Of a stretch of 64,000 bases of DNA, positions 11,502 through 64,000 are shown one piece after another (position 1 is the stretch's first letter; every line of letters starts with the position of its first letter). Source of the stretch: Moniliella sp. 'wahieum'. Its lineage: Eukaryota. The notes under the pieces were generated by a model, which ran no database searches, was not told where the DNA came from, and worked only from the letters and a program-made list of their open reading frames with translations. The stretch spans positions 1 to 64,000 of the forward strand of contig RSEE01000026.1 of the NCBI GenBank assembly GCA_003971905.1, given 5' to 3'. The translations under genes and the position numbers were made by a program.

Positions 11502-12142
11502 AGCGTAACGCATCCCTGTTGCCGGTTTTTTTTCTGGCACGTGCTCCTCATCTTTCCTCTTCGTCATCTCCCCCTTTGCATCCCGGGGTCGGTGGGTCGG
11601 TCGTGCCTGTGGTGTGGGACCTGTTGCCCCGGATGCCTCTACGCTGTCCATCAACCCGGGGCGGCCCTGCTGCAACGGCACATACGCAACAGCAACAGCA
11701 ACAGTAACAGCAACAGCACCCTAGCGAGCCTTATACGCTTCGGCATGTCCGGCCTGGCTGCATCCCCCCTCTTCATTCTTTCCCCTTTCCCCCCCATCTT
11801 GCAGACATGTTTTGCCGTCTACGGCCCTCTAAAAAAATTGGCGCCCTGCCAACTACGCCTCGACCCCGTTTGTCTGCCATAGCATTTTTTCCTAGCCAGT
11901 TCGAACCCGCGAGGTCACCCTGGAGAAAGGCTCGCTGGTGTGGGTAGGCCAGCAGTAGCTAGGAGCTAGTTTGTTTGCCGTGCATCGAGCGCTGCGGCAA
12001 CCCAACAAACGAAAAACGAAGGAAGCGGCCGATGCAAATCGAACGGGTGGCAGTTCCAGTGAACCACCTGGAGGCTAGGGTGGGTTTTTTTTCAGTTTCA
12101 ACGTTCAACGTTCAATATTCAATGGACCATTTCCGCTGCGAA

Positions 12143-12152
12143 TGACTGACTC
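12143..12152 (+). promoter_or_regulatory. Possible Gcn4/CpcA element (TGACTGACTC) upstream of ARO2
   Basis: TGACTC core about 155 bp upstream of an aromatic amino acid biosynthesis gene. The motif is short and could be chance. Confidence 0.3.
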
Positions 12153-12304
12153 GTGGCGTGTGGAGGAACATTTGTCGATTATCTCCGTCGTCGGGCGTGG
12201 CAGTCGCCCGATTCGGGTCGGCACTTGGGCGTGAAGCGCCACCGGTTTTCTTTGTTCCACCACCCCGCACCCTTTTGCGCCGCGTTGCTGTCGTCTGCAC
12301 CAGC

Positions 12305-13598
12305 ATGTCTACCTTTGGCCGCTTCTTCCGCGTGACTACCTTTGGCGAGTCGCACTGCCCGTCGGTGGGGTGCATTGTGGATGGGTGCCGCCCGGGATGG
12401 CGCTGCGGAACGAGGATGTGCAGCCGCAGCTGAGCCGGCGTCGGCCGGGCCAGAGCGCGCTCACCACCCCGCGCGACGAGAAGGACCGGGTGGAGATCCA
12501 GTCGGGCACGGAGCATGGCGTGACGCTCGGCACGCCCGTGGCGATGATTGTGCGCAACCAAGATCAGCGCCCGCACGACTACACGGACAAGACGTTGGAC
12601 CTCTACCCCCGTCCGTCGCATGCCGACTACACGTACTTGGTCAAGTACGGCATCAAGGCCTCCTCGGTGGTGGCCGTTCCTCGGCGCGAGACGATTGGCC
12701 GTGTGGCCGCGGGCGCAGTGGCGAGAGAAGTACCTCAAGGAAGCGTTTGGCGTGGAGATTGTTGCGTTTGTCAGCTCGGTGGGCAAGGTGCACATCCCGC
12801 GCTTCCCTGGCGAGAAGCTCGCCCCGGCACCCAAGGCCGACGTGCACGACCCTGCGGCACCGGCGAGCAGCGTTGACAATGTGGTGGTGTACGATGGTCT
12901 GAGTGCGGCCGAGGCAGAGGAGCCGTTGAGCCAAGAGTTCCGTGACTTGCTCAAGTCGGTCACGCGTGCCGAGGTGGACAAGACGCCGATTCGCTGCCCG
13001 CACCCGCGGCGGCGAACGGATGGAGCAGCGCATTCTGCTCGCCAAGAGCAAGCACGACTCGATCGGAGGCACAGTGACGTGTGTCATTCGCGGTCTGCTG
13101 CCGGGCTGGGAGGCCTGTGTTTGAAAGTTGGAGGCCGTTGGCCCACGCCATGCTCTCCATTCCCGCTACCAAGGCGTTTGAGTTTGGTTCGGGCCTGCGC
13201 GGTACCGAGGTGCCGGGCAGTGGGCACAACGATGCGTTTTTCGCCAAGCCCGATGGCACGCTGGGAACCACGACGAATTGGTCGGGGGGTGTGCAGGGGG
13301 CATCACCAATGGCGAAGACATCTACTTCCGCGTCGGCTTCAAGCCCCCTGCCACCATCTCCCAAGACCAGCAAACGACGGCGTACGACGGTACTGAAGGT
13401 GTGCTCAAGACGCGTGGGCGGCATGACCCTTGCGTTGTTCCCCGCGCGGTGCCCATTGTGGAGTCCATGGCTGCGCTGACGGTCATTGACGAGCTGTTGG
13501 GCCAGGATGCTCGCCAATTGGCCGCCTCGCGTCTCAACTCGGCGGTTGTGGCAGGGTTGCCCGACAGCATGAAGCTGCCCAAGCACAGGACGGCCTGA
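12305..13598 (+). CDS. ARO2: Chorismate synthase (frameshifted)
   Basis: [105 protein letters not shown]. Confidence 0.97.
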
Positions 13599-16500
13599 GA
13601 CGAAGGCCAAACGCCCGCTGTTTCCGTCAACTTAAAATGCACGTTTTTACAGAAGTACACGTTCCATCTTAAGTTGTAGTGTAGTCTGCTCCCTCTGATC
13701 CCACGGGACTACGCGCCCAAGCACCTGCTTTGAGCATGTACAATGCAACAGCACCCGACCTCACATTCGTAATTGAAGCCCAGCGTCGTGAAACACACAA
13801 CCCCACATGTTTAATCGCTTTGTTGCGCAACTGAGCGGGAAGGACAACTGTGTCGTGCTTGGACACCATGCCTCCCCCACCACTATCACTGCTTGGCAAA
13901 ATATGGAGGCAAAACATCACAGAAGAGGAGTAGACAAATATGAGTAGAGAACGTGTTATAGTACCCAAGTGGGATACGGACATCCCCCCTCTCATCGATC
14001 CCGATCTAGTCATATATTTCGCTGCTTTCTATAGTCTCAAGTCTCATTGAGAGCAGTCCCATTCGTCCCACCTCTTGTTCCTTTATCATACATGTACGTA
14101 GCCGTCTTTCTCCCACCGCCTACGACCTCATCATCTTCCCCGATCTCCGACGACAATAACGACCGCCAGCTTCTACAGTGGTGTGCACAGGTGTCGAGCT
14201 CGTCCAAGCGCGTCTTTCCCTACAGCCCCATCTCCTTACGTCCCAGCATCGCCCAGCAGCCAGCCCGACACATTTCGATCTTCCTGTGGCGCAGAGGCCG
14301 TCACCACGCCGTCATCAGCTCTCGTTTCGACATCCGTCGTCGTCCTTCAGCATCGGCCCTTCGCCACCCTCCTCAGGAGCTGATGGGCCCGCTCCCCTCT
14401 CCCCTGTATCCGAAACACAACCCCACCTCTGGTGTGGAGCGCAAACGCAAGCGTGAGCATGAGGACGAGGACGAGAGCGAAGACGACGATGAAGATGCGG
14501 ATACGAAAGTTATGGGTGAATCGGCACTCAAAATTGTCAAGGTACTGAACCATGTTCGCTTGCCTGAGATGACCGCCTCAGCGCGCCCATGCTGGTTACT
14601 GAGAGCCTGAGGCGTTCCTGACCCCTCCTTCCATTCAAGATGAAAAGGAACGGGCCCGTATCCCTATCAATTTGAGTGACCACTGAAACGCTACCCCTGT
14701 GATGGGAATGTGTAGCCTCTTACTTCGGCGAGCGAAGGATATGACGAGGATGATGCGTTGGAGGTGCACGCTCTCGCCTGCATTTTTGGTGTCACGCAAG
14801 TTCTTGGTCTGGCCAATATGGTTATTGGCGGTATGGTGTTCGCGCTCAGCGGTATACGATTACGAATTGCTAGGGCAAGACCAACCGAGTACGGGGGGAA
14901 AATTTCGGCCCTCAGTGACATGGTCACCAACTAACAGAGAAGATGATTAGTGTGTTGAGTATAGCGCCGACAAGGCCAGGCGCACCGAGACGTTGCGTCT
15001 TCACACCCAGAGCCTGCATGCACAACCGGCGCCATTGAACACGGCTTGTGTCCGTGGTTCTCTACAAACCGCCGACGGGTGTGCATTGTTGGACAGCAAT
15101 AGGGCACCTGCTCGGTGGACTACTTTCTCAAACGTCACCTCCACGGCCGTCACCTCCCCGGCCTGGAATACATTTAGTCTCCATCATGAAAAACGAACCC
15201 TTTTTTCCTCGATCCATGTGGACGCAGTTCCAGCACTTGCGCCCATCCCTGATCCCTCCACGCCTGGCCAGATGATTCCTTTCCTCACCTCTTCGATGGT
15301 CCACGAGTGATCGACAGAGACGAGCCACGTTCGTGCGCAGTTCAGCATGAAGCCGTAATATCCTCTCCTTCGATCCATGCAATAAACTGTGCGGTATCCC
15401 TTCCGACCAAAGCGGGCTTGGTGTTGGGTCGCTCACTCGTCCTCTCCGTGTGTTGGTTCGTCGGCATCAATGCGCGCATACGCGACGGATCTATTGTTTG
15501 GGTATCCCACTCCAAATCGGTAATACTATAGGGACATAATAATAGTACAACGGCAGTTTCCCTCAAGACTCTCCCCTACTCTCTCTTACGGCAAGCCTAC
15601 CACCCTGTGAACCCATCTCGCCTTCGTCGGTGGTTGTGCGACTATTGCCATTACCCGACGTCCACACTCACGCTCCATAATACCCCCTCATGACGATCCC
15701 CGCAAGAGGACTGAAGACGTGCTCACTACCACGGGCAACACGAAACCAAATGCCCTGCAGTTACAACAGCGCCCAAGGGTATGGTGGTCTGTTCCTGCAA
15801 AGCTCCCGTCATTGATAAAGGCTCTTTTTCAGCCTCCTACCCCCCCTGATCCTTTTGAAAACCCTCAGCGCTCGTATTGGATGGATGTTGCTATTGCATA
15901 TGTGCCTCTGTGATGGATTTGTTCTCCTCCTGCATTACTCCCTTCTCTGGCAATGCCTCCCTTCCCCAGGTCAGTTCTATTATCATACGGCTTCTCAATG
16001 CTGCTGTCGAGGACGACGATGGACACTAGGTAATTACATGAGCAACGCCCGCATTACCGATGGCCAAAGCGCTGCCATTACAACGTGAGATGTTGGCTTT
16101 GGGATTGGGACTGTATCCCAGGCGCCACCCGAAGAAGCCACCGCGGCGCCAATGCTCAGAATATATCCACAGCAAACCGCGTCCGGGTGGATGAGTGTGT
16201 TTTGTCTGCTGTCCTAAGGAGACTTTTCCTACTGGCTCCTCAACGGGGAGCATTGCAGTAAGGGGAAGAAGGGTGGGGCAAGGGGGACGGATGGACAAGA
16301 GGGGAGATCTCGATGATACTAAAAGGACGGTGAGTTCCGGCTGTGATGACGGGGAAAGTACGACCCATTTCTCACAATATTCTCACGTATCTACAGGTCT
16401 CATGGCGGCCTACGGCGCTGCGTGCTGATAGGAGCTGTGGCCAGAAGTCGCCCCGATCGCCCCTCCCCCCTTGTATTCACCGTGCCAGAAAGGGAGGTAA

Positions 16501-18302
16501 AGCCCGCCATCACCCGGGAAAGGGGGAACATCGCTTACGAGCAACACAACAGCAGCACGCCTCCCCCCCCCCGCGCTCAGTCTCCTTAAAAAAGGGAGTT
16601 GAGGATGTTGACCGGTCAACCCCCCGCTGTTGGAATTTCCCCTCCTGTCTAATCTCCATCCGACTGGTATCAACGTTGACAACGCGAAGCAGACGAAGCA
16701 ACCGAGACGCCTGCGACTCAAGGCTGCGACTCAAGGCTGCAAGCTCCGCGGCGCCAAAAGAATATGATCCACGATATCACTTGCTCGTATATGTATATCC
16801 AAATCCACCATCTGCCTCCCGTTCCTCTATCTCACGTTTCGTTACTATCACACTAGTTCAAAAAGGGTGCTCGTTTTCCTTCTCACGCTCTTGGTCCATG
16901 TCAGATCCCCCCTGCTCGGATATACGTTCGATATACCCTGTTGGACGGGGTAGATACCCTGGGCGCACGGGTCGCCAGTGCGCTCTGCGCGGGGGGCGGG
17001 GCTTTTGAACGTGTGTGGAAGAGGCCTGTTGAGAAGCCTGGGAGCCATTGGCCGTTTGGCTGAACGCTGAACGCGCTGAACTCAACGTTGAATAACGTAT
17101 TCGTTGAACGTATACGCGTGGAACGTGGAGAGTAGAAAACTGGACGCATGCCACCCACACGTGCATGCTATGCCACCTGTGTCACAGAAATCTGTGGCAT
17201 GCTCTGCGAGCGCTCACCCGCTCATCCGCTCAGCGCTGAGGCTCAGCGCTCATGGGTCCAGCTTTGGGAAACTCAACCGCTTCAACATCATGCATCATGC
17301 ATCATGTGTCGTCATGCATCACCTGAACATTCAATATTCCACGTTCGACCTATGCTCTTCTCCGATCCATATCCATTCGCCTTCGCCTTAGCCTTACGGA
17401 TGCGCCGGTCCATCAGTGACTACTCCTAATAGTGATCAGCATCTAGAAACAACAGTGGCACGTATCGATATCGTTAACCGATTGTGAGTGACATCTATCC
17501 TATTGTGTGCATTCCATTGACAGAGCTTAAGGCTGGGACAGGGGGAACGCTACGTCTAAACCGAACCGTTCATCTTGCGGGGGTTACTTGGAAGCGCCAC
17601 CAAGATTAAGGGACCAGGGGGATCGCCAGGATATCAGGACCCTCCGGCTCACGCCATCCGGTCCCGTACCCTAGGAAGCGCGTGTGGACACGGAGGAACG
17701 TGGTTGACATACGAGCGAGGAACCATTTCCACTGAGACTTAGTATTCCCCCATTGGCGCAGAAAACGCGAATGTATGTCGTCAGCGCGTCAGCGAACATA
17801 TGAGCGCGGACCATCTGTGGCACCAAACTGGTGTAGCGGCGCCGGTAGCCAAGCCCGGATCCGTTTCCGATGCATTCCTTCCAATATTCCGTCCAGATGA
17901 TAGAGGAATATTCTAGCCTCTGTAGCTCATGCCTACAATGCAATGTACCATCAACTGCCTGTGCTCTCTGGTCTTCTCTACACCATCAATACCCAAATGC
18001 TGATGGGTGGCAAAAGAAGAAACGTCAGCGCGTCAGCGTCAAGCTTCAAGTCCATTCGCCCCAATAGTTACTAGTTACGAGTTACTAGTTACTAGTTATT
18101 CATAGGCGCTATAGTCAGTCACACTGGTCTCGCTGTGGTCACACTGGTCACACTAGTCACTCCTTGATTAGACTAGTCGCTCGCTAGGATCTAGTCAGCA
18201 CTCGTATGTACTCAGTACTCGATACTCAGTGAGGTACTCAGGTGCTCGAGTACTCAGGACTCAGGTACTCAGCAACCAAGCTTCAAGCTTCAAGCCCAAA
18301 AC

Positions 18303-18800
18303 TGTTGGAGTGTGGTGGCATGTGGCACCACTTGGTGTGATGGCTGGATCGGCCATGTCGCTGGCAAGCGGAACTGGCTATAGAGTTCCGCAACTCGCGC
18401 GCTCCGGATTGGTTACCGTCGCGCCCTCGTTCCCCTCCTTCCTCTTCTCCCGTTGCATTGAAGGTTGGACTAGCGTCAGGAGCTTACAAGAAGCTATCTC
18501 TGACTGTTCCCACCCTGCACAGGTGAGCTTCCTGTTCTCTCTCTTCCTGTTCTCTTCCTGCTTCTGGCGCTTGTCCTTGTCCAACGGTTGCATTAAAGGT
18601 TGGACTAGCGTCAGGAGCTTACAAGAAGCTATCTCTGACTGTTCCCACCCTGCACAGTGCAATCGTCCTTAGCTTGGTAGCGTAGCTACTTCTCAGTTAA
18701 CGGACAACCGGGTTCTGGGCTCTCATTGGTGTGACCGATTTCATCGCGCTCACCCATTGATCGCCTAGTCTAGTGCTTCACCCTAGCCCCCAATCTTTCA
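18303..18800. mobile_element. Solo LTR, family A (498 bp)
   Basis: Starts TGTTG and ends TTTCA, flanked by the identical 5-bp direct repeat AAAAC (18298-18302 and 18801-18805). Contains an internal 71-bp duplication. Confidence 0.75.
18452..18657 (+). repeat. 71-bp direct repeat, two copies (18452-18522, 18587-18657), one mismatch
   Basis: GTTGCATT(G/A)AAGGTTGGACTAGCGTCAGG...CCCTGCACAG occurs twice, 135 bp apart. Confidence 0.9.
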
Positions 18801-19100
18801 AAAACCACTAGGTTCTAGACTCTAGTCACTTAAGTTACTAGTTACTATTCACTAGTCACTATTCACTTGCCACAGCGACCAAACTCGATCTGATCGATAG
18901 TCACTCTAGTCACTTGCTTGCAGTCACAGCGACCTGTCTTTCACCTGGAGCGAGGGGATGGAGTCACAGTGGGGCTAGGCGGAACCCGCGGAGCCCCGGG
19001 TTAAATACCGATAAAACCACATTAACATAGGAAACGCGAGAAGTATAAGAAGCTGGGAGATAAATGGTAAAAAAGAGAAGTTGAGAATGTTGATACTAGA

Positions 19101-20094
19101 TGTCACGGGCGGGCGCCTCCAGGGGCCCGCCCTGGGGGTTTTTGGGGTACAATCCCTTAGGCGACGGTAGGTCGACTCACGGTGGTTTCGGGCTTAGGCT
19201 GGTTGGTGAATCCGAGCGGAGCTAGGGACGAGGAGAGGCCTTTGGTGGGGCGGCTGCACGTGTGGCAGGGCTGTGTCTGCACCGGTTTGGGCCGTAGTAA
19301 CGTGTCTGAAGCCTCCGGGACTTAGGGACGGGAGGAGGCAGCGGCGGACAAACGCTGCCTTGACTGAGACTGGAAATCGACGCGGCCAGAGGAGGGCTCG
19401 CGCGACTGGACTGACGAATGACTGGAGGATGAGGTCGGAGGAGATGTCGGACGCTAACAAGACATAGCTAATCGAAATTTCTTGCGCACAATCTTGTTGG
19501 GCCTTGCCCACCTTGAATTTTGTACGTAGTCCTCACATATCTATCCGGAACCTTGTTACCAGCATTTTCGATTAGCTATGGAGTAGGCTGCCTGTACTGG
19601 ATCAATTGGCTGGAAAACGGGCAGGAGCCGGACAGGATAGGCGAGAGGGTAGACGAGGGAGTTGAGACGAGAGTGGGGACGAGAATGGGGACGAGAATTG
19701 ACGAGAATGGAAGGTGGGGGAAAAGATCCCCATCAACCAGGCGTACAGGCAGGATCAAAAGGGAAACGGATACAAGAGGGGTGTAGAAAGGAAGACATGT
19801 CAAAAGCGGGGTTGGTCGCCACAGGCACGACCGAGAAAGGAAAAGGAAACGGGGACGGGGCGACAGACGTCGCCACGGCACTGGAAGCTCGGTGGCCTTA
19901 TTTAGGCCGGCCGACTTGGACTTGGGGGGGGGCGACTATTGCCGCGCGGATGCATGGCCCTTCGGGCACGATACTTAATTTAGCCAACCATCATCACACT
20001 CGGTTGGCCTGCGGAGCAGGCTCTACTGGGCATGTGTGGAGCAGGCGGGCCTTAGCTTGGGTCGGACCATCTCGTTTCCGCCGCGCCCGTGACA
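19101..20094. mobile_element. Solo LTR, family B, full-length copy (994 bp including a MITE insertion)
   Basis: Termini TGTCACGGGCG...CGCCCGTGACA form an 11-bp inverted repeat (TG..CA). Flanks CTAGA/ATAGA match 4 of 5 as a TSD. A closely similar partial copy starts at 58492. Confidence 0.8.
19463..19580. mobile_element. 118-bp MITE with 15-bp TIR and 2-bp TSD
   Basis: CATAGCTAATCGAAA...TTTCGATTAGCTATG flanked by GA/GA. Absent at the matching position (about 58850) of the second LTR copy. Confidence 0.85.
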
Positions 20095-21849
20095 ATAGAA
20101 GCTGATGCGCTGATGTCGATGATGTCGATGATGGTCTATTGCAGTACCATGTAACAGTCAATATTCATGTTTTTAACGGGATAGCCTAACCGCTTGACGC
20201 TACAAAACCTGCAGATGGTAGCCTCTGGTAGGCCGTCGTTAGGCTGGGGGGGGAGGGGGGGGGCTGATGCACTGATGAGACGCGGCGAGGTGCGCGGCGT
20301 ATGCAAAACCAAGGCGCTATTAGCTACTACTACTTTCTAGTAGCTATAGTTACTGATGGTTACTAGTTACTAGTCTTCTGGATGGCTTTTTTCAAGCTTT
20401 TGATGATCCTTGCCTGGTGGGTTCTGCGGTCACGCGTCACGCCCAAGGCTCACCGGTCGCCAGTCACTAGTCATCCGCCACCAGTCACACGGTCACGCGT
20501 CACGGGCTACGCATCCCACATTCATGTCACACGAGGAGGACCACCGGGCCTACGGCCGGTCGGCTGGGGCTTCGCCCCAGCGTGGTGCTGCGTCGCCACC
20601 TTAGCCACCGTTCCACCGTCGCTACCCTTCCACGCTGGAACCCTTCCACGCTGGAGAGGGCAAATAATATCACCGATTCTCTGGCTGCGGGTGGCTGGGA
20701 ACGTGGCATCGGTCGGCACGTGCCTATGACGTAAAAGTGTGCAGGATTTTCCAGCCGATCTTATGACATGTCACATTGATGCAGATCCCAGACTAGTCGG
20801 GCTTATCCCACACCTCCATCATGTCACAACACGCACATGTCACAGCCATCCTGTCGTCACCGCGTTACTCGTTGCTAACTGCTTGCCCTGCCCATGTCAC
20901 TGTCACTAGTCACTGTCACACTGTTGCCAGAAGCTGCTGGTACGCTCGGTGGCCGGCGGTGCACTGGAAACTCGAGGGAACATGGTGAACATGGGAACGT
21001 ACTCGAACGAACCGTCGTGATGTTCTGCCAGGGCACAGCAGTGCGCCAGTGACCGAGCGATCCGCCTACCGCTGAGGCTCAGCGGGGATGCTCAACTCTC
21101 AATCTCACGCTCCAACCTTCAAGCTGCAAGCTTCACGGCCAACATTTCGCCCCAAGCGCACCCCTTTCGACATACTAGGTAGCGGGAATACAAAGCCGTA
21201 AGCGGCAACAGGCAAGTACGGGTAAGGGGTACGCGCCACCCCTGCACCGCAATGCCCCAGGCCGCTCAGTCTGAGCACTCAGTCAGTACCGGAAGTACTC
21301 GATCTGAGGTCAAAGTACTAACCGGTGCCACCATCCACAACACTCTCCCCCTGCCCGGACCGGTAGCACACAACACGCAATCCAGCACACGCCGCGCCTG
21401 TCACCAAGTCACAAGTCACATGTGAGCTGGCGAGGCTGAAGGCAGGCTCACGTCCCTGCCCTCCCAGTCGCCCTACCTGACCACTCGGCACCACAGTACC
21501 TCGTTCCTCGTTCCTCGTTCCCCACCACCACCACCTCCTCCTCTTACTTCGCTCCTCGCTCCTCCACTCGACCCTACACTCTCGTTCGAATTGGCTCCCG
21601 CCAGCGATTGGCTACAGCAGAACGCAGCGGCACCTTATACACCCACCGCTGCTTTTCTAGCTCCCTTGTCACTCGTTGGGCTCTGCTCTTCGTCTCCCTT
21701 TATTTCACTCTACCCTTGCCGCTGTTTCGTCTCGTTTCGTCTCGTCCCTACCCGCCCCGTCTCTTCTACTCCCGTCCCGTCCCGGCCCGTTCCGTCCCTT
21801 CTTGTCTTATTTCGTACTTTCTTGTTTCCCATTTTTCATTTTGTTCGCG

Positions 21850-23670
21850 ATGACTTTTTCGACTTCTCCTGCTATCGCCACTTCAACTCTTGGCATTACC
21901 TCCCATGGCACAACTCTGCAAGGTACCCCTCCCGTCTCTCCTCGGACTTCGCCCTCCCCAGACACGCCGGGCGAATCCAAGGTCTCCAAGTCTACCAATC
22001 GCTCCCCCTCGTCCTCTCGCAAGGCTCAATCTGCCGGCCAACGCAAGAGATCGTCTATCGGCGGGGCCACCGCGTCCGCCAACCAGGCACCTGCACAATG
22101 TGAGCAGGAAGACGATGACCTGTCCACTACCGTCTCCATGGCATGTACTTTTTGCCGCCAACGGTGCGTTTCTCGTGTTTGGTCTTTAGCATTGATTTTT
22201 TACCAAAACGCACCTACTAACCGTCTTTCTTAACCCTTTTTCGTCATTGTAGCAAGATCAAATGCAACAGCGCCAAGCCGGTCTGCAGTGCTTGCCACAG
22301 CTATGGCCGCAAGTGCGTTTACCAGGCGGTCACGGCTGAGGCCAACGCGGCATTGCGCCTTGTGCCAAGCGCACTCGTCGAGCCGCCTGACTGCCTCTTT
22401 AATCCTGTCGGCTCCGTCGCTGCAGTCGTGCTTGTTTAGCCAAAAGGTTGTGGCTAACGTGACCACTCGGGTGCACCAGCACCACAGCGCGTCACTCAAC
22501 CAGATTGCCGAGTCGATGGCAGGTCTGGCCTTGTACTCAGACAATGGCGAATCGCTCTCGCATCTTCACCACGCCGTTCGCTCGCCCGACGATGGTGTGG
22601 TGAACCGTGCCTCCACCCCAGTCAACTTGCATGAACTTCTTACTGTCGATTCCGATGTGCAGCCGTCAAGTCGAGGTGAATATACCTCGCTTCACCCTAT
22701 TACGCCCTCCAACACCGTTTCCGGATCGCCATTGCCCATGCTGTTCACCCCGCAGCCCTCGATGGGACGGACGAAGGAGTGGGAGGGTACTGCTTCCGAG
22801 ACATGGTGGAGTGCTCCCCCCTGCCCTTCGTGTTCGTTGCCTTCCTCCTTCTCTGCTGTATCGGGACCGGGACCGGACTCCATGTTCTGCGATCCCAACA
22901 ACGTGTTTCGCCAGAACCGGTCGTGGATGGCGAGCAACCTAGGTATGGCAATACTCCCCGCTGCGAATTCTTCGTCCGAGGGTGACACGGAGACCTCTTC
23001 AGCGGTGGGAGCCAATGGCAGTAAAGTGACCCAGCTAGGCTCTTGTGTTGATCTTGACCTCTCCCTCCTGCTGGAGAAGATGGAGGAGGCCATGTCGACG
23101 TCCTCTGCCACCCCCATACAGGGGCTGTCTCAAGCTTGGACCAGCTACCCGGGTTGGCAAGCTGGTGCTGGGTTTACCCTCCCGAGCACTGAGGTTACGA
23201 CGGAAACGGTTGCGACGGAGATCAAGTCGAGGGAAGCGATAGAGTGGGACTTGTCCTGCACCCCTCCGCTTTCTCCCTCGCTTTCTCCGTGGCCCTCGGA
23301 GGCAGGGACGGTTGATCAATCGGTAAGCACTCGGCGAGAGCAGCGCCGGCCCGTGGTTGTCAACCCTCGCCTATACCATGTGATTGAGGTCATGAAGCAG
23401 ATCCAAACCCCCGCGCAAGTGAGTGCGCTCGCTCGCCGCCGCCAAGCACGGCAAGCGCAGTCGACCGCTGCACACTGGACCTGTCCGAGCGTTGGTCCGG
23501 GTTCGAACGACGGATCGAGTGTGCCAACCAACACGGGTAGCACCTTGCTCGGCGATCCCAACCAACAGTCAGGCGCAGGGTTCCTGTTGGAGTTGGACTT
23601 GGCCGATTTGCTACCTATAACTCCAACCCGTCTCAGTGGAGCACGCCGTGCCTCGTTGAGCGTGGGCTGA
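21850..23670 (+). CDS. Zn(II)2Cys6 transcription factor with a Ser/Pro-rich C-terminal region
   Basis: ACTFCRQR|KIKCNSAKPVCSACHSYGRKCVY, joined across intron 22164..22252 (GTGCGT, TACTAAC, TAG). Continuation into ORF 22288..23670 requires a frameshift. Confidence 0.8.
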
Positions 23671-26546: not shown

Positions 26547-26782
26547 GGCGGATGGGCCGGTGAGGCTGCGGGAGAAAGGAGAGGGGGGGGTGGGTGGGGC
26601 ACAGGCAAAACCAAAGGCCGGCGGGGGCGAGATTCCGCGGGCAGAAAATTGGGATTCGCGGTGAGGCAGGGCTGGCTCATGAAAAAAATTATTGCCGCGG
26701 GGGCGCCTTTCCAATTCCTCTGCTATCTCTGCCCTCTGTGCTCCTGTCTGCTTGCCTGCCAGCGCTCTCTCCCGCTCCCACC

Positions 26783-30973: not shown

Positions 30974-31974
30974 GGGGGCGGGCGTGTGGCGAGCGAGGAG
31001 GGCGCGGTGGGCTGCGCTGGGATGGGCTGGGATGCGTCCAACACGCCCCCGACGCTCTTGTGCGGCTCTGTTTGTGCTGCCGCTGAAAATGAAAAAAGTG
31101 CTCTGGTGCAACTTTCAACTGTCGCGCCGTTCGCGTCACGCGTCACGTGCCTCCCCATTGGCCATATATTGCCGACTCCCTCCCCGGCCTCATCTTGGCG
31201 GCAAGTGGCACCTCGCTGGGGTTTTTTGCTCCCAGCTGGGCCAGTTCGAGCCCAGGCTCTCGGGCGCCGGCACCGGACGATGCTTTCCGTGTTGGCCAAC
31301 GTTGGGACTCCAGCACCTGCAGCGTTGGCGGCGCCTGATGGAACACGCGTGCATCCTGCAGTGCGGTAGCAGGCTGTCGAAGTCTGCCCATGCCTAGCTG
31401 CCGAGCGGTACTAACGTTGGGCAACGAGCTTTGTTGGAAGGAACCCGAACGGCCAGTTCAATTCCGCCCAGCTGGGTTCGACAAGGGTGCCCCTGCCACT
31501 CACTGGCTTTATCGAATCCCACCATAAACACCACTGTGTCCCGATCCAAGAAGCGGCTTGGGCGGGCCAACAAGCCGATTTACGCGGCCTGGGAGGGCTA
31601 AGTATAGCTTGAAGCCTGAAGCTTGGCATGAAGTGTCCTGACGCTCATACGACGCTTGGATCAGACCTGGGTGCCCTAGCTCGTCCGAGCATCGATCCCA
31701 TCCGCCATGCGATCGAGTGGGAAAACGATGGTCGAAAGATCGGCTATGTGTTGCGCAGGTGGCGTGTCAAACGGCTGGGGAGCCACGGGCATCGATCATA
31801 AATAACCCCATGAAATTTCCATTTGCGCCTGGCCCGAGCGACCACCACCATCAGCACCACCATCAGCACCACCATCACTGCGCTCTCCTCTCCGCCCCCC
31901 ACCCCAGCACGCCCTCCCACCCGCTGGTTTCTTTGCCCAGGTCGGCGCACTCCTTGCTCACTGCCCCACAGGGA

Positions 31975-41406: not shown

Positions 41407-42347
41407 GGGCGGGGTGCGCGGGGGGAAGAGCGGCGGCGGCCAGGAGGATGGAGATGGGGGCGGGAGGATGTCCGCCCCAAGGAAACGAAGCGAGGCCCCT
41501 GCTTGGCAGTAAGGTACTACTTCGAGCGGCCTACTCGTAGCCGGAGTGCACTTGAGCCACTCGCCACTAGTCAGCGCTCAGCCCCTGTCAGCCCACGGCA
41601 ATCGGATCTACAAGATCGAGATCATCGATCATCCGTTATCAATATTCAATCATCTTAATCATCGATCCACTGGGCGAAATCTGGTTGGGGTTTAAATAGG
41701 CCTGAGACCTTGTTTGGCCCTGAAGCTAGCGAGTATCGACTATCGGTTCATACATGGCGCTCACGAGCACGTTGAGCACGTTGAACGTCGAACCTTCAAG
41801 CAAACCCGGAAAAGGTGTTGCTAAGTAACTGAGTTCTTCGGCATATCTCGGTCGGTAGTCTGTCAGTTAGTTGCCACTGCCCCTTGTCAGCAGGTCCAGA
41901 TGCCTCTTCGTCGAAACACTGTGGCCTGTGCTCCCTCTGTCTACTGCATGTCTAATGTCTATCTACGCCATAGGAGGTCGTAGGGCAGGCCTTGGTGCTC
42001 ATGCGCTCACAATCCAAAGGTAAAGATGTATCTATCTGTCGTCGATCATCAGGGTTTCCCGCCAAAAACAGACTGTTGCAGCTAATACACAAGGGAAGAC
42101 GCTCAGGACAAACCCATAATTGCAAGCGAGGGAACACAGAGACCAGATAGAGATGGGAGTCGGAACCACCACAAGAACAGCAGACAACGTAAACAGCAAC
42201 ACACGGGAGACATATATGTTTGCGCAAAAAAGAGGAAAAGGAGATTGGCAGCAGTGCATCCAGACGAGGACAAGCGATGGGCCTGCTCGAGACCACCAAG
42301 ATCAATCCGGACCAATCTCGGTAGTGGAATGCAGTGGTGAACTCAGT

Positions 42348-44268: not shown

Positions 44269-46263
44269 GGTGCTCTATGTGGGAGAGGAATAAGGGGGGG
44301 GGGGGGGGGGACGTGTGGGCGGGGTGCGGGGCGCGCGGGATGGGGCGGGGGGGGTTTTATGCAGATGGCTCCAGCACCAGACACGCAGCTGGAGGGGACG
44401 AAGGTGCGGGCGAGTGTAGTAGGGATGGGGGGAAGGCGCGGACAGACGGTGACGTGCAGGCGGGAGGCGAGCCTTCGTTGGCACGGATGTGATCACACTG
44501 TTCTGGAATCGTCGCAGGTGCCGGAGCGCTGGGATGGAAGCAGCAGCGTGCAAATCCTCTGTGCCCCTGCGACAGCCAGCCCCCCAAGACACGCGCCACG
44601 CCGGCCCATAGCGGACGGAGCACGGCGTGTGTCTTCCTCTGGCGCTGTGCGCTGTGCCTCTCCGCAGCTCCCAGTCATTAATCATTAACCCCGCAATGAT
44701 CGGCTGAGTCCGGCTAAGTCGAGCTATCGAGCTAATCTGTGATCAGTCCTCGGCACTGGGGGGCACTTCCCCGCCCAGTCAGTCGCGCCCCCACACGCGC
44801 CGAGCCAGCAGCAAAAAATGTCCGCCCCACAGCCCCCGTGCTGGGCGATTTGTCCCGACCCCGCATGCACACCACTGGCCCCGTGCGGCGAGGGCGCGGA
44901 CGCGGGGCAACTGCGAGTGCACCCTGGTACCTGCCTAGTCCCCACTGCTCGTGTGTGTCACGCAGCGGGCGGTGATATCGTGATGCTGGGGGCAGCGCAC
45001 CAGCACACTGTCCTGCGCGCCGTATCGCCACGCCTGTCCAGGCGGGGCCCAGACTGGCCTGGCGCCAAGGCAGGCACCAGGCCAGTACCAAGACCAGCAA
45101 CCATGCTGCCAGTCGCACCCCCGTCTCCGGGTGACATGTGAGCAGCGGCAGTGGCTAGTGGCACAGCACCGTCGCCACCCTCGTCCGCACAGGACGAACG
45201 AAGCACCTAGCAAAAGGGCGGTACATAGAAGGGCATTGCCCTGTATAGCGCCCGAGCCCAGAGCCTCCCAGTCCCTTCCCCCCCACGTCCTCCTCTAGAG
45301 AGCCGAGGATATGTATATGGCCCACCGGTTGGACCACATCCAATTGGCCCGTCTCGGCGGCAACCGTGGCTTGAAGCTTGATGGGGGTTGGTTATATTGT
45401 GTGGGTATAGAAGCGCAAGTCGACTCGCGAACACACAGGTGAAACTCAAGTAGGCTCCGATGGTTGCAACCGGGTGCCCAGGCACGCATTGGTAAGCATG
45501 TTGGCTGTTTCGTGTCCGCTCTTCTTTTTGTATCCAAGTTTACCTGGTATGTTTGGACACCTATGCTTCTCTGTATAGGTATGCCAAAAAGCCAACAGGT
45601 CCCGAGCACAATCAGGTACAAAACAGGATCCACGTGTCTGGGGTAACTTAGTAGTAACTAGCTTAACTAGTGTGGAGTCGTGAATCATTAAGAAGGATCG
45701 ACTGTCCCGCGGGCTCTCTTCACCATCTTCGCCCTCGCTCCCTTAGCTTGTTTTGGGTTTGAAATCTCCCACAATGCTTTTAGGAGAACTTGTTGCAAAG
45801 GATAGGTGGTTTGCAACCTGTTTGTGTAAACTGAGTGAGCCCCAGTCTCCTGCCGCCCTCTCCCGAGTTGAAGCATATCGGTGTGAGACATGTGATAGAA
45901 AACGTTGTATATCTGTAGGGCAGTCTCGCCCGTCAGGCGGGGGCTCGAGCCCCCCTTCCCCAGATGCCGGGGAAGCCTAGGGGGTCACATGTCCGGTCAT
46001 CAAAAGCTTTTAATATAACGTCACTGCTGAGATGATGCGTGGCGGATATAACCGCCGGTTTTCGCACCATAACCTGCATTCAAACCCAGTGGACACATAT
46101 CCAGTAGCATATACGCCAGAGCAAGATGGTGCTGTTATATAGCACTTCGGCTTCATTGAAAGAGGAGATAAAATGAATTTGACTTGGTTTTTTTATCTGT
46201 TTTTTTTGGTGGAGAGGGTGGATGGAAACATGGCGGGTGTGAGAGACAAGAGATGTTCAGGGC

Positions 46264-54336: not shown

Positions 54337-55581
54337 TCATCCGGCGCAAAAACGGTCCACGTACTCATTCACACACTCCCACTCCCCCTTCAGGTTCTCC
54401 TTCCATAGCGTAACTTTGCCGTCGCCACACGAGACGGCCAATACGTTACCCGAGATGGACCAGGACACTTTCCAGACCGTGTCGGGGAACTTCCCTTGTC
54501 CATCGGAAGAAGGGTCCAGGGTGACTTTGGACCATTCGGATGACATTGCCTCTTGCGTCCAGATGAGCACGGTACGGTCCTGCGATGCGGTCGCCAGCTG
54601 TGTCCGGGGCAAGCCTTGACCGGGAGCAAAGGCCACATCACGCACCCAATCCGTATGTCCAGCAAGTGGGACGGCCTCCTCAACCCACCGGTTCTGCTCC
54701 TCGCTAAACTCCCACAGCTTGACCACATTGTCGCATCCGGCACTCGCAAACCTCCGCACGGGGGGAAGCGCCTGCGCCGCATCCTTGCCCACGCCAAGCT
54801 GAGGGTTAACCAGGCTGCCGGGAACCACGGCCGGCGCCCACGAGACGGCATTGCAGCCAATCGGATGGGCAGTGACCATGTCCACTGCCCAAGTGCCGTT
54901 GACTATCGGACAAGGAAACATGTCAGTTTACTAACCCTCGACATAAAATGAGAACGGGCCACGCACAATTGAACGTCAATACCGACACGTTACCATCGGA
55001 CGAAGCACAGGCCAGTACAGCGCCCAGTTCAGGCGGGGCCCAAGCCAACGAGTTGACCGAAGCCGAATGCATGGCATGCTCCTTGATCTTTTGCCACGAC
55101 CCAGTCGGTTGCTGGAGGTGTCGCCCGCCCCGTGCCGGCGCGGCAGCGGGAGCCTCCTCGTACTTCCAAATCAAGACCTTGCCATCGTACGACGCGCTAG
55201 CCAAAATCGAGCCGAATTTGGGGTGGGCCCATGCGACCTGCCACACCGGCCCCTCGTGGCCGGTCAGAGACACACCTGGACCAGTCGCCGCGCCGTCCAC
55301 AACATCAAAAATCTTGACACTCCGGTCGGAACTGCAAGTAGCCAATCGGCGCCCGTAAAAGTCGAGCTGGGCATCGTGCTGAGCAGAATCGCTCTCGTCA
55401 GTTCCGCTCCTCAACACAGGGGGGTGCAGGCCACGTACAATCATATCCTCATGGTGAGTTTCAATGGTTTTGGGCTCCGCAACGGGCGGGGCAACGGGAG
55501 GGGCAGCAGCAAGAGCCTGTGCAGTAGCAAACAAGCGGTCAGATAAGGGTTTCGAGCGCGGGGCGAGTTGGAGCATACCAT
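54337..55581 (-). CDS. SEC13: COPII/nucleoporin WD40 protein Sec13
   Basis: ATG-only exon, intron 55578..55517, then [85 protein letters not shown]. Confidence 0.97.
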
Positions 55582-56389
55582 CGTTGGTGAGAAATAGCGT
55601 GGTGGTGGTAGAGGCTGAGAAGACGGCAGCGAGCACCATGGACGTGGCGCCGGCGAGCTGGCCACGTTGCTCCAACGAACAGATTGACTGGCCTTGTGCG
55701 GCTGGGTGTTATGTAATACAGGAAACGTTCAATTTTCCAGTGCCAGGTGCCTTCCATGTGTGATCATCGATCATCCGTTTGAGTCGGGCGTCACGCGTCA
55801 CGCGTCGCCTGTCACGCGTCACAATCATCATGCGATGAGAATGGCACGATCATGCATCATACATTGGCATGATCATCGATCATCCATCCTGCATCATGCA
55901 CATTTTCGCCAAAATGCGAGCTTGTTCAGGATCGATGGATGTGTCGCCTCGTGGCATACGCGAACCAACCCGATCTCAAATGCTAGCCTGTGGCCAGCTA
56001 CATCCACCCAAAGCCACACGGCCTGGTCCCGCATAGAATCACAGATGGCCAAGGCATCTTACAGACGGTCCCCCAGACGATACTGCCTCTTGACATCTCC
56101 CATCATCACCGCGGGTATGCTGTAGCACCACTACATCATACTCCTCCTCCCTCTCCCTCTTCTCTACGTTTACGCATACGCGCGAATTGTTATCAACAAT
56201 GTTCACGCATTTCAAGCAAACTTGTCATTGACAGGCCAGCTTCAAAGCTGCGGGTCCCAGTAGTGGTATATAGCGTCGGGGACAGCTGCGCCTCCGAAAG
56301 GTATCCTCTGGGGCAAGGGAGGCAGACGGGGGGAGAAGGAAATAGGGGATTCAAGTTCCTAAGCACCCTTCAAGCGGCAAATACCAAGC

Positions 56390-57927: not shown

Positions 57928-58491
57928 GGTTGGAGAGATGGCTGCTTCCTAGCGCATGCAACCCACGTCCAAACCGTGGGATGAGGGAGTAGCTAGCAAA
58001 CCGGAACGGTGTCTGTAGCTTGCCCCCTCTGCCGCTTGTTCTCGCGCCGATGCGATGAAATTGGCCGAAAACCGTGATTACGTTTGAAACGGTTGGGGAA
58101 AATACGACCCCCTGATTCGGAACAATCAGCGGTTCGATCGCTTACCTACGCAAATGTTGGGGATTCGAACATTGGGATCATGTCGATCATGCATCATGCA
58201 TCATGCATGCATCATCCCTATTGTGCTGAGAGTGGCCAGGTTCGGGGAGTGCGCGGCGAGTCCCGGATGGGTTTTCTGTGGATTTCCGGATCCCCACCAG
58301 TCCATGTTGAAGAGGGGTTAATTTGAGTATCCCCCCGAACTGGTTTCTGGGAATACCTGGTGTACCACATCCCAGTGTCGACTGTTGCGACGCGCGCCAT
58401 TGGTGTAGTATGGCCTAGTAGGGACCCAAGCCCAAGCCCGGTTGCCTCTCGGGCACACATTTCGTTCAGAAAAGGATAATCGGAACTGTGT

Positions 58492-59044
58492 TGTCACGGG
58501 CGGGCGCCGCCAGGGGCCCGCCCTGGGGTTTTTGGGGTACAATCCCTTAGGCGACGGTAGGTCGACTCACGGTAGTTTCGGGCTTAGGCTGGTTGGTGTG
58601 TCCGAGCGGAGCTAGGGACGAGGAGAGGTCTTTGGTGGGGCGGCTGCACTTGTGGCAAGGCTGCGTCTGCACCGGCTTGGGCCGTAGTAACGTGTCTGAA
58701 GCCTCCGGGACTTAGGGACGGGAGGAGGCAGCGGCGGACAAACACTGCCTTAACTGGGACTGGGAATCGCCGCGACCGAAGGAGGGCTCGCGCGATTGGA
58801 CTGACGAAGGGCTGGAGGACGAGTTCGGAGGAGATGTCGGACGCTAACAGGAGGAGCTGCCTGTACTGGATCAATTGGCTGGAAAACGGGCAGGGGTCGG
58901 ACAGGATAGGCGGGAAGGGACGAGAGTGGAGACGAGAGGATGACGAGAGGATGACGAGAATGGAAGGTGGGGGAAAAGATCCCCATCAACCAGGGGTACA
59001 GGCAGGATCAAAAGGGAAACGGATACAAGAGGGGGTGTAGAAAA
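58492..59044. mobile_element. Truncated second copy of LTR family B
   Basis: Collinear and highly similar to 19101-19790 from the TGTCACGGGC terminus onward. Lacks the MITE and the far terminus. Confidence 0.9.
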
Positions 59045-59597
59045 AGTCAACGACTAGTAGCCTTGTCCAGTAGCCCTCGTCCTGCTTCCTACCACCAACG
59101 CCTATCTCTCACCCGCAATCGATCGACTACGCTACTGTCCCAAACGCTTCAGCATCCATTGCGGTCTCCATAGCCGGGTGGATGGCTATACAGGTCACTA
59201 GGTCACTATTCTCCTCAGGTCTCACTTGAGCTATACTAGTGACTAGTGACTAGTGACCTACGGTGTTACATCAAAAGTCAAGGCGATAGCCCCTGGTCGA
59301 GGTCAAGGAGCTCCGATGTGTAACCATTCCATTTAGCTTTTGTGTTGGCTTTGTCCATGATCTCCGCAGCCCTAAGGTATATAGCCTCTGTTGCTCTTTC
59401 ATGCACCCTTGTATTAAGCGTGTCGTTGGCTGGCGTATTTGACCACCACACTGCCAACACTATAGTGCTACCGCATCACCCATCAGGGTGGCCATCTGGA
59501 CTGCGCCACTCTCATCTTCAGATAGGGGATGACGAATGTAATCCGCCTTGGAAGAGCATCAAAGAAGCGGGAGAGCATGCGTCTCTGGGAGAGGGGG

Positions 59598-59641
59598 CAA
59601 GTTTTAAGGTTAGAGGGGACAAGGTTTAAGGTTAGAGGGGG
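59598..59641 (+). repeat. 22-bp tandem duplication CAAG(T/G)TTTAAGGTTAGAGGGG(A/G)
   Basis: Two adjacent near-identical units just upstream of the transposase remnant. Confidence 0.75.
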
Positions 59642-59699
59642 CCGCGATCGTCTGCCGGACCTGTGACAAAAAAAGCACCCCACCAATGCATATCATATG

Positions 59700-61450: not shown

Positions 61451-61497
61451 ATGTTGGCAGCGAGGCGCCTCTCCAGCACGCCTGCACCAAGAAGTGC

Positions 61498-61869
61498 ATG
61501 ATAGAGCAGGACGGCCAGAAAGTACTGGTGCACAACTACGAGAAGGACCCGATCTCGGGGGAGAACGAGGCGATAGAGTACTTTATCCTGGCGGCGTCTC
61601 ATTTTAAAGCCAAGAACGGGAAGCGGCTGGTATTGAACGAATACGCTATGCGAAGTCCACCACACCACAAGCCGCACATGGACTTGAGGATCAGCTGGAA
61701 GTCCCCGGAACTGAGCGCAAACGCGCTGAGCAAAGACGTGGCCCAGAGGATTGCAACGAACGATGCCATGCACCTGTGGGACAAGCGCGCCAAGAAGAAG
61801 ACACCTGCCGTGGCCGCTGTCGGAGGAGGGGGCAACAGCGACGACTCTTCGGACAGTGATAATGATTGA
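61498..61869 (+). CDS. Small hypothetical ORF following the transposase, possibly element-encoded
   Basis: 123-aa ORF with natural-looking composition and an acidic C-terminus. No recognisable motif. Confidence 0.3.
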   Translation: MIEQDGQKVLVHNYEKDPISGENEAIEYFILAASHFKAKNGKRLVLNEYAMRSPPHHKPHMDLRISWKSPELSANALSKDVAQRIATNDAMHLWDKRAKKKTPAVAAVGGGGNSDDSSDSDND

Positions 61870-62884
61870 TGCGAGAACCAAATGGACATGCATTCGCGAT
61901 GAGGATGAGTATAGGTTTGGTGGCAGTCGTCAGTCATCAGTAGCCAGGCCATAGGGCGGTGCGCATCCCGGACCCATCAGCCCGAACCTCTCGAGACGTG
62001 AGATGGGGCCATGAGCGGCGCTTTGACATGATGCGCATGCGACATAAGCTTCTTTTGCCGGCGAACGAGCCAGGTGACGGGTGACTGTCATGCGTCCCCG
62101 CGCAGGGGCATGGCCGAAGCGAAGGGGCGGTTATGGAGTAAGAGGCCAGACGGTGAGGCGTGGGTTGCAGCCCCAAATGGCTGTCGCCACAAGCGTCGGG
62201 TCTCTGCCACCTGCCTCTTCAGCCCCACTCCGCTTATCCAGCCCATCTACCATCTTCCAATCCCGCCATTACCCAATTTTTCACACCCGCCCGGGTCATG
62301 TGCGATGTCAAACCCAATCATGTCTTGTCTTGGCGCGTGGACAGTCACGATTATTCATTCATCGCCGCATCAGCCACGCTCTTGTTGTGCAAAATGGTCG
62401 TCAATCTGCTGACGAATCTCTATATAGCTTTTGGTGGTAGCTCATATCGTGTGAAGAAGTATTCGTTGGAGATCCCGTGTACAACGAGAGGGACAGAGAA
62501 CTGAATCATTGCTATAATCCCGCACTATCGAGTGGGTAGGCCAGGTGAGCGGGAAAGGGTGGGTGGGTGATGAGTGCGGTGGCGCTTTGTGTGTGATGGT
62601 TTGGTCTGCACAAGGAGAGCCAATAAAGCGCGCATGGCCGGAGCGCATTTAAGCTATTTAAGCTTAATCGCGATCACCTCGGGTCGGTGGGGTGGGTGCC
62701 TCGCTTGAAGCATGAAGCTTGAAGCTTGAAGCTTGGCAAGGCCCCTCTCATTGTTTGACGTCTCATATGTAAGCCCTCTTTCACCACACCGCCCACCCCT
62801 TCTGTCTCCGCGCCCCCCTCAACCACCACCTCGCATCTATCCCAGCCCCCCGAGTGCAGTGCCAACCCCCACACCGCACCCAGC

Positions 62885-64000
62885 ATGGACAGCATCCCAC
62901 CTCACTGGGCTGCTCTTCCGCCTTCCCTTAGCCCCCGTGCTGGCTGCAGTGGCCGTCGGAGGCATCTTGACACTCCTGCTGCTCGTCCTGGTACCTGACC
63001 GTCCCATTGGGGCCCAGCGCCAGGCCAACATTGGTGTCGTGCCCGGCGGCTACCCTATCCTGGGCCATGTCGGCATGCTCTGGGACTCGATCCGGCTCAA
63101 GACCAGCGACCGGTTCCTTGATGACATCTGCGATGCACAGCGCGCCTTTGGTCCCGGGTTGCGCCCCTATGCTTTCCATCACCTTGCCATGGCGGGACGA
63201 CCATTGTCATCAACCGCCCGAGTATGTCATGCACTGCCAAGATAACAAGTATGGCAACTTCCCAACTACATTAAAGGCGCGAGCATTCAGCGTGCCATGT
63301 CCGATTTTCTTGCGCCCGAAGGGATCTTTGTTGCAGATGGCCAACCTTGGCGAACCAACGCAAGATCGCAGCCAACATAGTATGTCGCATCTCCCTCCCC
63401 CCTGTTGCGTGTGGACGCGTGGAGCAGCGCAGTGGGGATCGTCGATCATCGATCAAGGCGCAGTGGGGAGTGTAGTATTAACAGGTTTCTGCCTGTGTGA
63501 CGCACAGTTCTCGGCTTCGAATTTCCGCACCCACTTTCAAGAAAGCATTCATGCCCACCTGAAGAAAATGGAAGCGCTTATGTCCATCTGCGCCAAGGAG
63601 CGCATCGCCATCAACTTCCAGGACCTGATGTTCCGTTTTACCATGGACACATTATGGACATTGCGTTTGGTTCTTCATTGGGTCTTTCCGTACGTCTGTG
63701 CTGTCACTCCGAGCGGCATAAAGGGTCAACAAAACTAATCTTTACAAACGAATGTGCCTCTGATTGTATGACAGAACACCCCGATGGCCTCAACCATACT
63801 AAGCCGTTTGTAGTCGCTTTCGATCATTTGCAAGAGGTGGCAAGGACGAGGGCGCAAACGCCGGCTATTTTCTAAACTTCAGCGCTATACTTCAGAAAGG
63901 ACGAAAGACTTCGGCTGCAGTCGCCACCGTCCTTTCTATGGCCAACAAGCTCGTCATGGAACGCATCGACGCGCTGGCCAAGGCGGGCGAGGATTCTGTT
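62885..64000 (+). CDS. Cytochrome P450, fatty-acid omega-hydroxylase-like group; 5' part only
   Basis: N-terminal transmembrane anchor, PGGYPILGH, NFPNYIKG, EGIFVADGQPW..QRKIAANI|FS, INFQDLMFRFTMDT..DIAFG. Intron about 63381-63507. Runs off the window. Confidence 0.88.

Follow-up and report, generated by a model that had tools for sequence, protein, structure and literature searches.

The non-coding DNA of a 64-kb stretch of Moniliella sp. 'wahieum' (contig RSEE01000026.1 of assembly GCA_003971905.1, positions 1 to 64,000; hereafter the window) carries short 7-base repeats of many different sequences that share one rule, a T-N-A core joined to a 4-bp palindrome. The original prediction had proposed this grammar from the letters alone, and the counts confirm it. 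Two T-N-A triplets separated by four bases (TNA-N4-TNA) occurred 129 times in the window, compared with 100 in dinucleotide shuffles. The spacer was palindromic in 48 of these matches, which form 31 clusters, against an expectation of 6.4 (maximum of 15 in 100 dinucleotide shuffles), while the non-palindromic matches were not in excess (81 observed, about 94 expected). The same palindrome flanked TNA on both sides 18 times (0.93 expected; maximum of 5 in 200 shuffles). Perfect tandem arrays of period 7 with at least two copies numbered 37, where 3.9 were expected; their unit was palindromic in 18 (0.5 expected), and in all 18 the palindrome was centred on T-N-A. Direct recurrence of 6-mers peaked at 7, 14 and 21 bp, and the distance from one TCA to another peaked at 7 bp (65 vs. 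26 expected).

The rule belongs to non-coding DNA. The window was partitioned by open reading frame (ORF) scoring into putative coding DNA (about 31.5 kb) and the remaining 32.5 kb. With shuffling in 500-bp blocks, 28 of the 31 clusters lay outside putative coding DNA (3.7 expected; maximum of 12 in 200 shuffles), and three lay inside it, where 2.4 were expected. The comparison that had been suggested, of palindromic with other spacers against dinucleotide shuffles and coding DNA, therefore returned an enrichment in the non-coding part only. The rule is also narrow. The other cores of the same self-complementary type (ANT, CNG and GNC) were not enriched in the window, nor was the loop triplet G-N-A (one match, 1.3 expected). 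Spacers of 2, 6 or 8 bp between TNAs showed no enrichment, so that a TNA rule with a palindrome of another length could be discarded, and so could a general excess of palindromes, even-length palindromes being unenriched in the window. Palindromic units were likewise not in excess at other periods, where they made up two of 69 arrays at period 6, none of 11 at period 8 and none of eight at period 9. Given the restriction of palindromic units to period 7 and a T-N-A centre, and the lack of the rule in heptamer arrays elsewhere (see below), the earlier argument that replication slippage alone is insufficient holds. Each of the examples first listed was recovered in its place or within a few bases of it; where "about ten" units had been named, the strict 10-mer pattern uses 11 palindromes out of a possible 16.

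Anatomy of the arrays

The minimal unit is TNA-pal4-TNA, where pal4 is the 4-bp palindrome, and the ends of an array are set by TNA and not by the palindrome. Most arrays are perfect, short (2–5 copies) and arranged head to tail; they are imperfect in places and embedded in unique sequence, and identical words turn up at unrelated loci whose flanks are not shared. Among the 48 palindromic-spacer matches, N was C or G in 41 and T on both sides in five; both TNAs had the same N in 39, and the two N were complementary in eight, which yields perfect palindromes such as GTTGACCGGTCAAC. All TTA arrays carry CTAG and adjoin TCA-CTAG arrays, and palindrome ends beginning with G are the rarest in the window. 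Runs of 12–13 nt, extending on one side only, are common, and six runs measure exactly 14 nt, i.e., one 7-bp duplication with no flanking microhomology. Read on the plus strand, the core is TCA or TTA in 17 clusters and TGA in five, a bias that could reflect the direction of replication. It is independent of the orientation of the neighbouring gene: TCA arrays lie upstream of a plus-strand ORF at 20.1–21.4 kb and upstream of a minus-strand gene at 55.8 kb.

Several simple accounts of this anatomy were tried and set aside. Stable hairpins do not appear to drive the arrays, whose single strands fold only weakly (z-scores of −0.25 to −2.9), with the exception of a fold-back at 59.2 kb (z −4.0). 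Decay of CpG-containing palindromes (ACGT, CCGG, GCGC and TCGA into ATAT, CTAG, GTAC and TTAA) is contradicted by the missing single-step intermediates and by CTAG being more frequent than CCGG. A common origin of the left and right hot spots by ancient duplication does not agree with matches that are limited to the arrays, with differing flanks. In our judgement alone, stop cassettes acting in all frames are an unlikely target of selection.

Bases between repeat copies

Not all repeats abut. Every exact 7-mer repeated with a gap of 1–3 nt was listed, and each gap was checked for reverse complementarity to the repeat ends next to it. In this test, which was devised after inspection of the data and includes a few non-independent cases, 11 of the 15 TNA-centred 7-mers with 1–2 nt gaps in non-coding DNA had a gap that mirrors the repeat end beside it as its reverse complement (3.5 expected), namely all five one-base gaps and six of the ten two-base gaps. 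Examples are CGTCAGC-G-CGTCAGC, GGTCACT-A-GGTCACT, GATCATG-TC-GATCATG and AATCATC-TT-AATCATC. Other frames of such repeats gave 17 matches in 56 (14.9 expected), and coding DNA gave six in 50 (10.8 expected). The related pattern TNA-NN-pal4-TNA was also enriched (17 vs. 6.3 expected; maximum of 12 in 100 shuffles). The gap result moved our reading towards a 7-bp duplication whose copies are joined after hairpin opening.

Distribution along the window

The arrays concentrate in hot spots at 16.6–18.9, 20.1–21.4, 41.57–41.66 and 55.76–55.88 kb, where different units stand side by side; the hot spots measure 0.1–0.7 kb and are non-coding and often close to promoters. Some other non-coding stretches, such as 13.6–16.6 kb, hold no arrays. 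Several arrays precede a gene start by about 50–400 bp (chorismate synthase, the F-box and WD40 genes, and an ORF starting at 62886). The features are listed below by position, with the strand wherever one was assigned.

12097..12123, plus strand: TCA-ACGT-TCA-ACGT-TCA-ATAT-TCA array, lying some 0.2 kb upstream of ORFs for chorismate synthase
16607..16679: 14-bp perfect palindrome GTTGACCGGTCAAC (a TGA-centred 7-mer and its reverse complement), and TCAACGTTGA
17059..17121: patch of TGAACG/CGTTCA words, both direct and inverted, including TCAACGTTGA
Within 17059..17121: GCTGAAC-GC-GCTGAAC, the gap being the reverse complement of the repeat end
17211..17321, plus strand: GCTCA words at period 8, TCA-GCGC-TGA/TCA, and (ATCATGC)3 followed by another TCA-TGCA-TCA
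17779..17794, plus strand: CGTCAGC-G-CGTCAGC, a TCA-centred 7-mer with a 1-nt gap complementary to the flank; the word recurs at 18023-18038
18023..18295, plus strand: dense hot spot with CGTCAGC-G-CGTCAGC, TCA-AGCT-TCA, (TAGTTAC)4.9, GGTCACACT at period 9, a GTACTCA series and (CAAGCTT)2.7
18822..18914, plus strand: TTA-CTAG-TTA beside TCA-CTAG-TCA
Within 18822..18914, plus strand: AGTCACT-CT-AGTCACT, the gap being the reverse complement of the repeat start
20101..20504: hot spot on the right side of the dispersed repeat, with TGATGTCGA at period 9 (the gap matches), TCA-ATAT-TCA and (GTTACTA)2.3
20101..20504, further units: two copies of GTCACGC, TCA-CTAG-TCA and TCA-CGCG-TCA
20764..21425: TGA-CATG-TCA; TGTCAC words in succession, with TCA-CTAG-TCA; two copies of AGTCACA followed by inverted TGTGA
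31132..31147, plus strand: (CGCGTCA)2.3, near the 5' end of the minus-strand RCC1-like gene
41571..41663, plus strand: TCA-GCGC-TCA, two copies of GATCATC, TCA-ATAT-TCA and AATCATC-TT-AATCATC, just upstream of the minus-strand F-box gene
44675..44688, plus strand: (TCATTAA)2
45131..45381, minus strand: TGA-CATG-TGA and TGA-AGCT-TGA (the core is TCA on the minus strand)
55762..55884, plus strand: four arrays in 123 bp (two copies of GATCATC, about five of GCGTCAC, TCA-TGCA-TCA, two copies of GATCATC), upstream of the minus-strand WD40 gene
58176..58215, plus strand: GATCATG-TC-GATCATG, then (ATCATGC)3.3 and TCA-TGCA-TGCA-TCA (two adjacent palindromes)
59192..59259: 68-bp fold-back (z −4.0) with inverted arms, the left one GGTCACT-A-GGTCACT and the right one (ACTAGTG)3.3
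62647..62735, minus strand: ATTTAAG-CT-ATTTAAG, TTA-AGCT-TAA and (TGAAGCT)3.3, about 150 bp upstream of an ATG at 62886 (read by eye)
63442..63455, plus strand: (TCGATCA)2, in a putative intron (inferred from GTATGT at about 63381)

The window as a whole is eukaryotic DNA of about 60% G+C in which introns interrupt the genes for dynactin p150, a kinesin, a SET protein, chorismate synthase, an RCC1-like protein, sugar transporters, an F-box protein and a WD40 protein. Several introns look fungal-type by eye, the nearest relative of the dynactin protein is 53% identical, and scans of the window with Rfam and for tRNAs gave no matches. About half of all arrays fall within 13600-22200, an 8.6-kb stretch of lower G+C content (52–56%) in which no gene or domain was recognised. 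In the same stretch a 71-bp segment occurs twice with 99% identity, 135 bp apart (18452-18522 and 18587-18657). Both copies end in CAG, followed by GTGAGC in the first and by TGCAAT in the second, and the repeat may be a young local duplication that took in an exon-intron junction. At 55842-55887 a 23-bp unit is present twice (82% matches per Tandem Repeats Finder) and carries two heptamer arrays along with it. The fold-back at 59192-59259, whose arms are heptamer and octamer arrays flanked by AC on both sides, is the only clearly stable single-strand fold among the array regions.

It had also been stated that the arrays are densest around insertions of transposable elements (TEs). This is true of two hot spots, which flank a non-coding dispersed repeat, and not of the rest, as the sites at 12.1, 31.1, 41.6, 44.7, 55.8 and 62.7 kb show no sign of a TE and adjoin gene starts; a special tie between the arrays and TE insertions is not supported. 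The dispersed repeat (19101-19797 and 58492-59043) is about 0.55–0.7 kb long, starts with TGTCACGGGCGGG, and its copies are 87–94% identical; it had no Pfam match and no clear target duplication. Its first copy holds a MITE (a miniature transposable element with inverted repeats) of 118 bp at 19463-19580, with perfect 15-bp inverted ends (CATAGCTAATCGAAA), and the second copy represents the empty site (near 58849).

Heptamer arrays in other sequences

The dyad rule is not a general property of heptamer arrays. Among viral contigs, 124 loci had five TCAs at 7-bp spacing; 45 of them were true tandems, and the spacer was palindromic in two of the 45. Metagenome sequences were scanned with the query ATCAT-SS-ATCAT-SS-ATCAT, which returned 120 loci (L125-L244). 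The 558 kb around these matches contained 226 further period-7 arrays, whose units were palindromic in 19, near the chance rate, and the centres of the 19 were mixed (CNG in nine, TNA in seven, ANT in two and GNC in one). No contig among the 120 loci carried several unit types, the best candidate (L172) having two. At the junctions of these loci the non-palindromic CC of ATCATCC repeats was far above GG, CG and GC, so that ATCATCC is apparently a heptamer microsatellite of wide occurrence. One metagenome locus of 619 bp (L217) contains five period-7 arrays of palindromic TCCNGGA-type units with a CNG centre, and may represent a different rule-based heptamer family in another organism.

In the texts reached by full-text searches, including searches by array sequence, we found nothing on a TNA-palindrome heptamer grammar, and the same searches gave no support to the heptameric intergenic repeats in Ustilago that the original prediction mentioned.

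Excision scars as a possible origin

The explanation that we favour, and hold tentatively, is that the arrays are excision footprints of a hairpin-forming cut-and-paste element, or of a related or derived nuclease, with a 7-bp stagger centred on TNA. From the observed geometry and statistics we infer an element, hairpins and the following order of events. A dimeric enzyme whose dyad lies on the N of TNA would attack dyad-symmetric sites and cut 7 bp apart, and insertion would create a 7-bp duplication of the form yz-TNA-ab. Excision would leave both flanks as hairpins with their tips at the duplication boundaries, 3.5 bp from N. Opening of a hairpin 0–2 nt off its tip would add the last bases of the flank in inverted copy (P nucleotides), and opening two bases off the tip would give a 4-nt self-complementary overhang, ab-b'a'. 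If one opened end were retained and the other clipped, the product would be TNA-ab-b'a'-TNA-ab, with period 7 and a palindrome by construction, which agrees with the common runs of 12–13 nt extended on one side. Retention of both full copies and of the extra bases would produce a period of 8 or 9 with mirror-image gaps, and a long inverted copy would produce perfect palindromes of the TGA...TCA type; in the perfect palindromes of the window the axis lies exactly on the predicted duplication boundary, e.g., between GTTGACC and GGTCAAC. Where the duplicated 7-mer is itself palindromic, the opened ends would be cohesive and could religate cleanly, leaving a clean duplication. Because each scar would offer two new TNA targets, arrays could grow by re-insertion and, later, by slippage. 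The period, the invariant T and A with a free base between them, the arbitrary palindrome, the two classes of N and the restriction to hot spots in non-coding DNA would thus all follow from one geometry.

Two marks expected of such scars are present in the window. Two direct copies of a fixed-length duplication are seen in the period-7 arrays and in the six runs of exactly 14 nt, and junctions of the P-nucleotide type are seen in the mirrored gaps. The earlier proposal of hairpin or fold-back repair at TNA accordingly gains from the extra bases that mirror the flank and loses from the lack of any element or transposase in the window, and the proposal of repeated insertion and excision of an element with a TNA target survives in the form of a 7-bp duplication centred on TNA, not in that of a 3-bp TNA duplication.

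A number of observations weigh against excision scars. All array evidence comes from one window, in which neither an element with inverted ends, a like duplication and a transposase gene nor a filled site was found: no transposase domain appeared in the 24, 148 and 136 window ORFs scanned, and a search for inverted ends flanked by TNA-centred 7-mers gave two weak matches in 994 pairs, both in presumed-coding ORFs. The sole clear MITE of the window, described above, is flanked by a 2-bp repeat, GA. In the gap test, the cases at 17779 and 18023 share a word and those at 62647 and 62648 belong to the same array, so that they are not independent. Some asymmetries would not be predicted for a symmetric enzyme: the mirror form TNA-pal4-NN-TNA was not enriched (7 vs. 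6.7 expected), TCA-NN-GA-TCA showed no clear enrichment apart from the palindromic TCGA, and the core has its strand bias. Within the runs of exactly 14 nt, N stands at unit positions 2 to 6, and is central only in the three GATCATC copies. Finally, half of the TNA-centred duplications have a fully or partly palindromic unit, compared with 1 in 16 by chance, and this excess of symmetric units calls for an added assumption, either cohesive-end ligation or a preference for dyad-symmetric targets. Fully symmetric units are far more frequent than an independent choice of half-sites would produce. In P elements, individual target sites are rarely symmetric and equal half-sites are rare (PMC2577343).

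Alternative explanations

Ordinary microsatellites born of slippage or flap misprocessing, with a lineage-specific step that favours units self-complementary around TCA and with no transposon involved, are a less likely explanation. In yeast rad27 mutants duplications flanked by short direct repeats arise, and structured flaps resist FEN1. The head-to-tail copies, the mostly perfect arrays of two to five copies, the recurrence of 6-mers at multiples of 7 bp and the peak in TCA spacing are what slippage would leave; arrays bounded by TNA look as if TCA served as microhomology, and the strand bias of TCA suits an asymmetry of replication. However, TCA microhomology alone has no effect, because TNA-N4-TNA with a non-palindromic spacer is not in excess, and the six exact 14-nt runs have no microhomology at their flanks. 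Folding of the single strands is weak outside the 59.2-kb fold-back, other loop triplets (G-N-A) and other periods are not enriched, and the TCA heptamer arrays of the viral contigs and the metagenome lack the rule. Composition or microhomology alone also fails to account for the choice of unit, given that almost half of the period-7 arrays have TNA-centred palindromes. Chance, local base composition or an assembly artefact we consider barely credible: although only one window is concerned, the enrichment persists under dinucleotide shuffles of the whole window and of 500-bp blocks, and the arrays are imperfect and set in unique sequence.

The position of several arrays shortly upstream of gene starts, and the return of the same words at unrelated loci without shared flanks, could suggest arrays of cis-acting protein-binding sites in promoters and 5' leaders, recognised by a dimeric or polymerising protein through T-A steps at 7-bp intervals and multiplied by slippage; hexamers in some units, e.g., ACGCGT, resemble known fungal sites. 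We find this unlikely, since a single protein could not require a palindrome at positions 4–7 and yet accept 11 different ones, and many factors would not all share a TNA core and a 7-bp period; instead of one conserved word per factor there are 11 words under one grammar. In addition, array orientation is independent of the neighbouring gene (20.1–21.4 vs. 55.8 kb), and the densest patches (16.6–21.4 kb) lie in the 8.6-kb stretch with no recognised gene. Footprints of PIF/Harbinger-like elements, with a 3-bp TNA duplication and 2 nt left from each inverted end, would fit the minimal unit TNA-pal4-TNA with the same N on both sides, and two joined inverted ends would give a palindrome by construction, just as the Tc1 footprint TA-CATG-TA consists of joined element ends. 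Such footprints are nevertheless very improbable here. About 11 families with different terminal dinucleotides would be required, where few kinds of end remnant are expected, and ends beginning with G are the rarest; three to five identical units would need one family to hit one spot repeatedly; the repeats of period 8 or 9 with flank-copying gaps would stay unexplained, and the window holds no inverted-repeat element flanked by TNA. A more distant variant of the excision-scar explanation, to which we attach a small probability, is an undescribed system, i.e., a new transposon lineage or a domesticated nuclease, that cuts T-N-A dyads in open promoter DNA with a 7-bp stagger, hairpin repair of the breaks then writing a family of heptamer microsatellites.

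If the arrays are excision scars, they would constitute a clean natural record of one breakage-repair reaction, including stagger length, target dyad, point of hairpin opening and the choice to clip or keep an end. Transposon scars could then seed a whole class of microsatellites in promoters, where promoter spacing and expression could change; and if an undescribed enzyme system were at work, the birth of microsatellites in this lineage would be largely enzyme-driven and legible from sequence. Surveys of simple sequence repeats usually stop at 6-bp units, and 7-bp arrays would escape those limited in this way. Should the transposon explanation fail, the rule of period 7, T-N-A and any 4-bp palindrome would still need a mechanism, and we found no described process for it in the portion of the literature covered.

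Comparison with known systems

Among the closest parallels are the excision footprints of hairpin-forming transposons. Hairpins on the flanks of hAT, Mutator and Transib elements are described in PMC5499845. As in these elements and in the P nucleotides of V(D)J recombination, direct copies of a duplication are here joined through 0–2 flank-complementary bases, and palindromes are centred on the duplication boundary. The arrays differ from them in a duplication that would be 7 bp long and centred on T-N-A, in scars stacked to about five units, in the full dyad symmetry of half of the units, and in the lack of an element or transposase in the window.

Galileo (PMC4168063) duplicates 7 bp of its target, with the palindromic consensus GTANTAC, within a palindromic motif of 15 bp, and resembles the arrays in an odd-palindrome duplication of 7 bp with a free centre base within a longer palindromic motif. 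A general model in which staggered cuts fall on palindromic targets and hot spots regenerate themselves, as set out in PMC2577343, shares with the arrays the self-regenerating hot spots. Unlike in Galileo, the bases adjacent to the centre are T and A here, and A and T there, and the outer positions may here have any sequence, provided that they are symmetric. The host, moreover, is fungus-like, and no THAP domain or P transposase was seen in the window. P-type excision leaves long 3' overhangs and not flank hairpins.

Canonical footprints of Tc1/mariner elements are odd palindromes with an ambiguous centre base, formed by the pairing of two identical 3-nt overhangs, and their flanks are direct copies of TA. 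The arrays share the odd palindrome with its ambiguous centre base, whereas the bases beside TNA are here inverted copies of each other. Because these flanking bases are inverted and not direct, and TNA bounds the arrays, TNA cannot be a remnant left between the copies of a 2-bp or 4-bp target duplication, an origin that we had considered and rejected. With heptanucleotide microsatellites, finally, the arrays have in common the short head-to-tail succession of 7-bp units in intergenic DNA. Those microsatellites, however, repeat one or a few fixed words, and the control heptamer arrays do not follow the dyad rule, whereas in the window at least 11 words stand under one grammar; the finding belongs either to transposon scars or to microsatellites.

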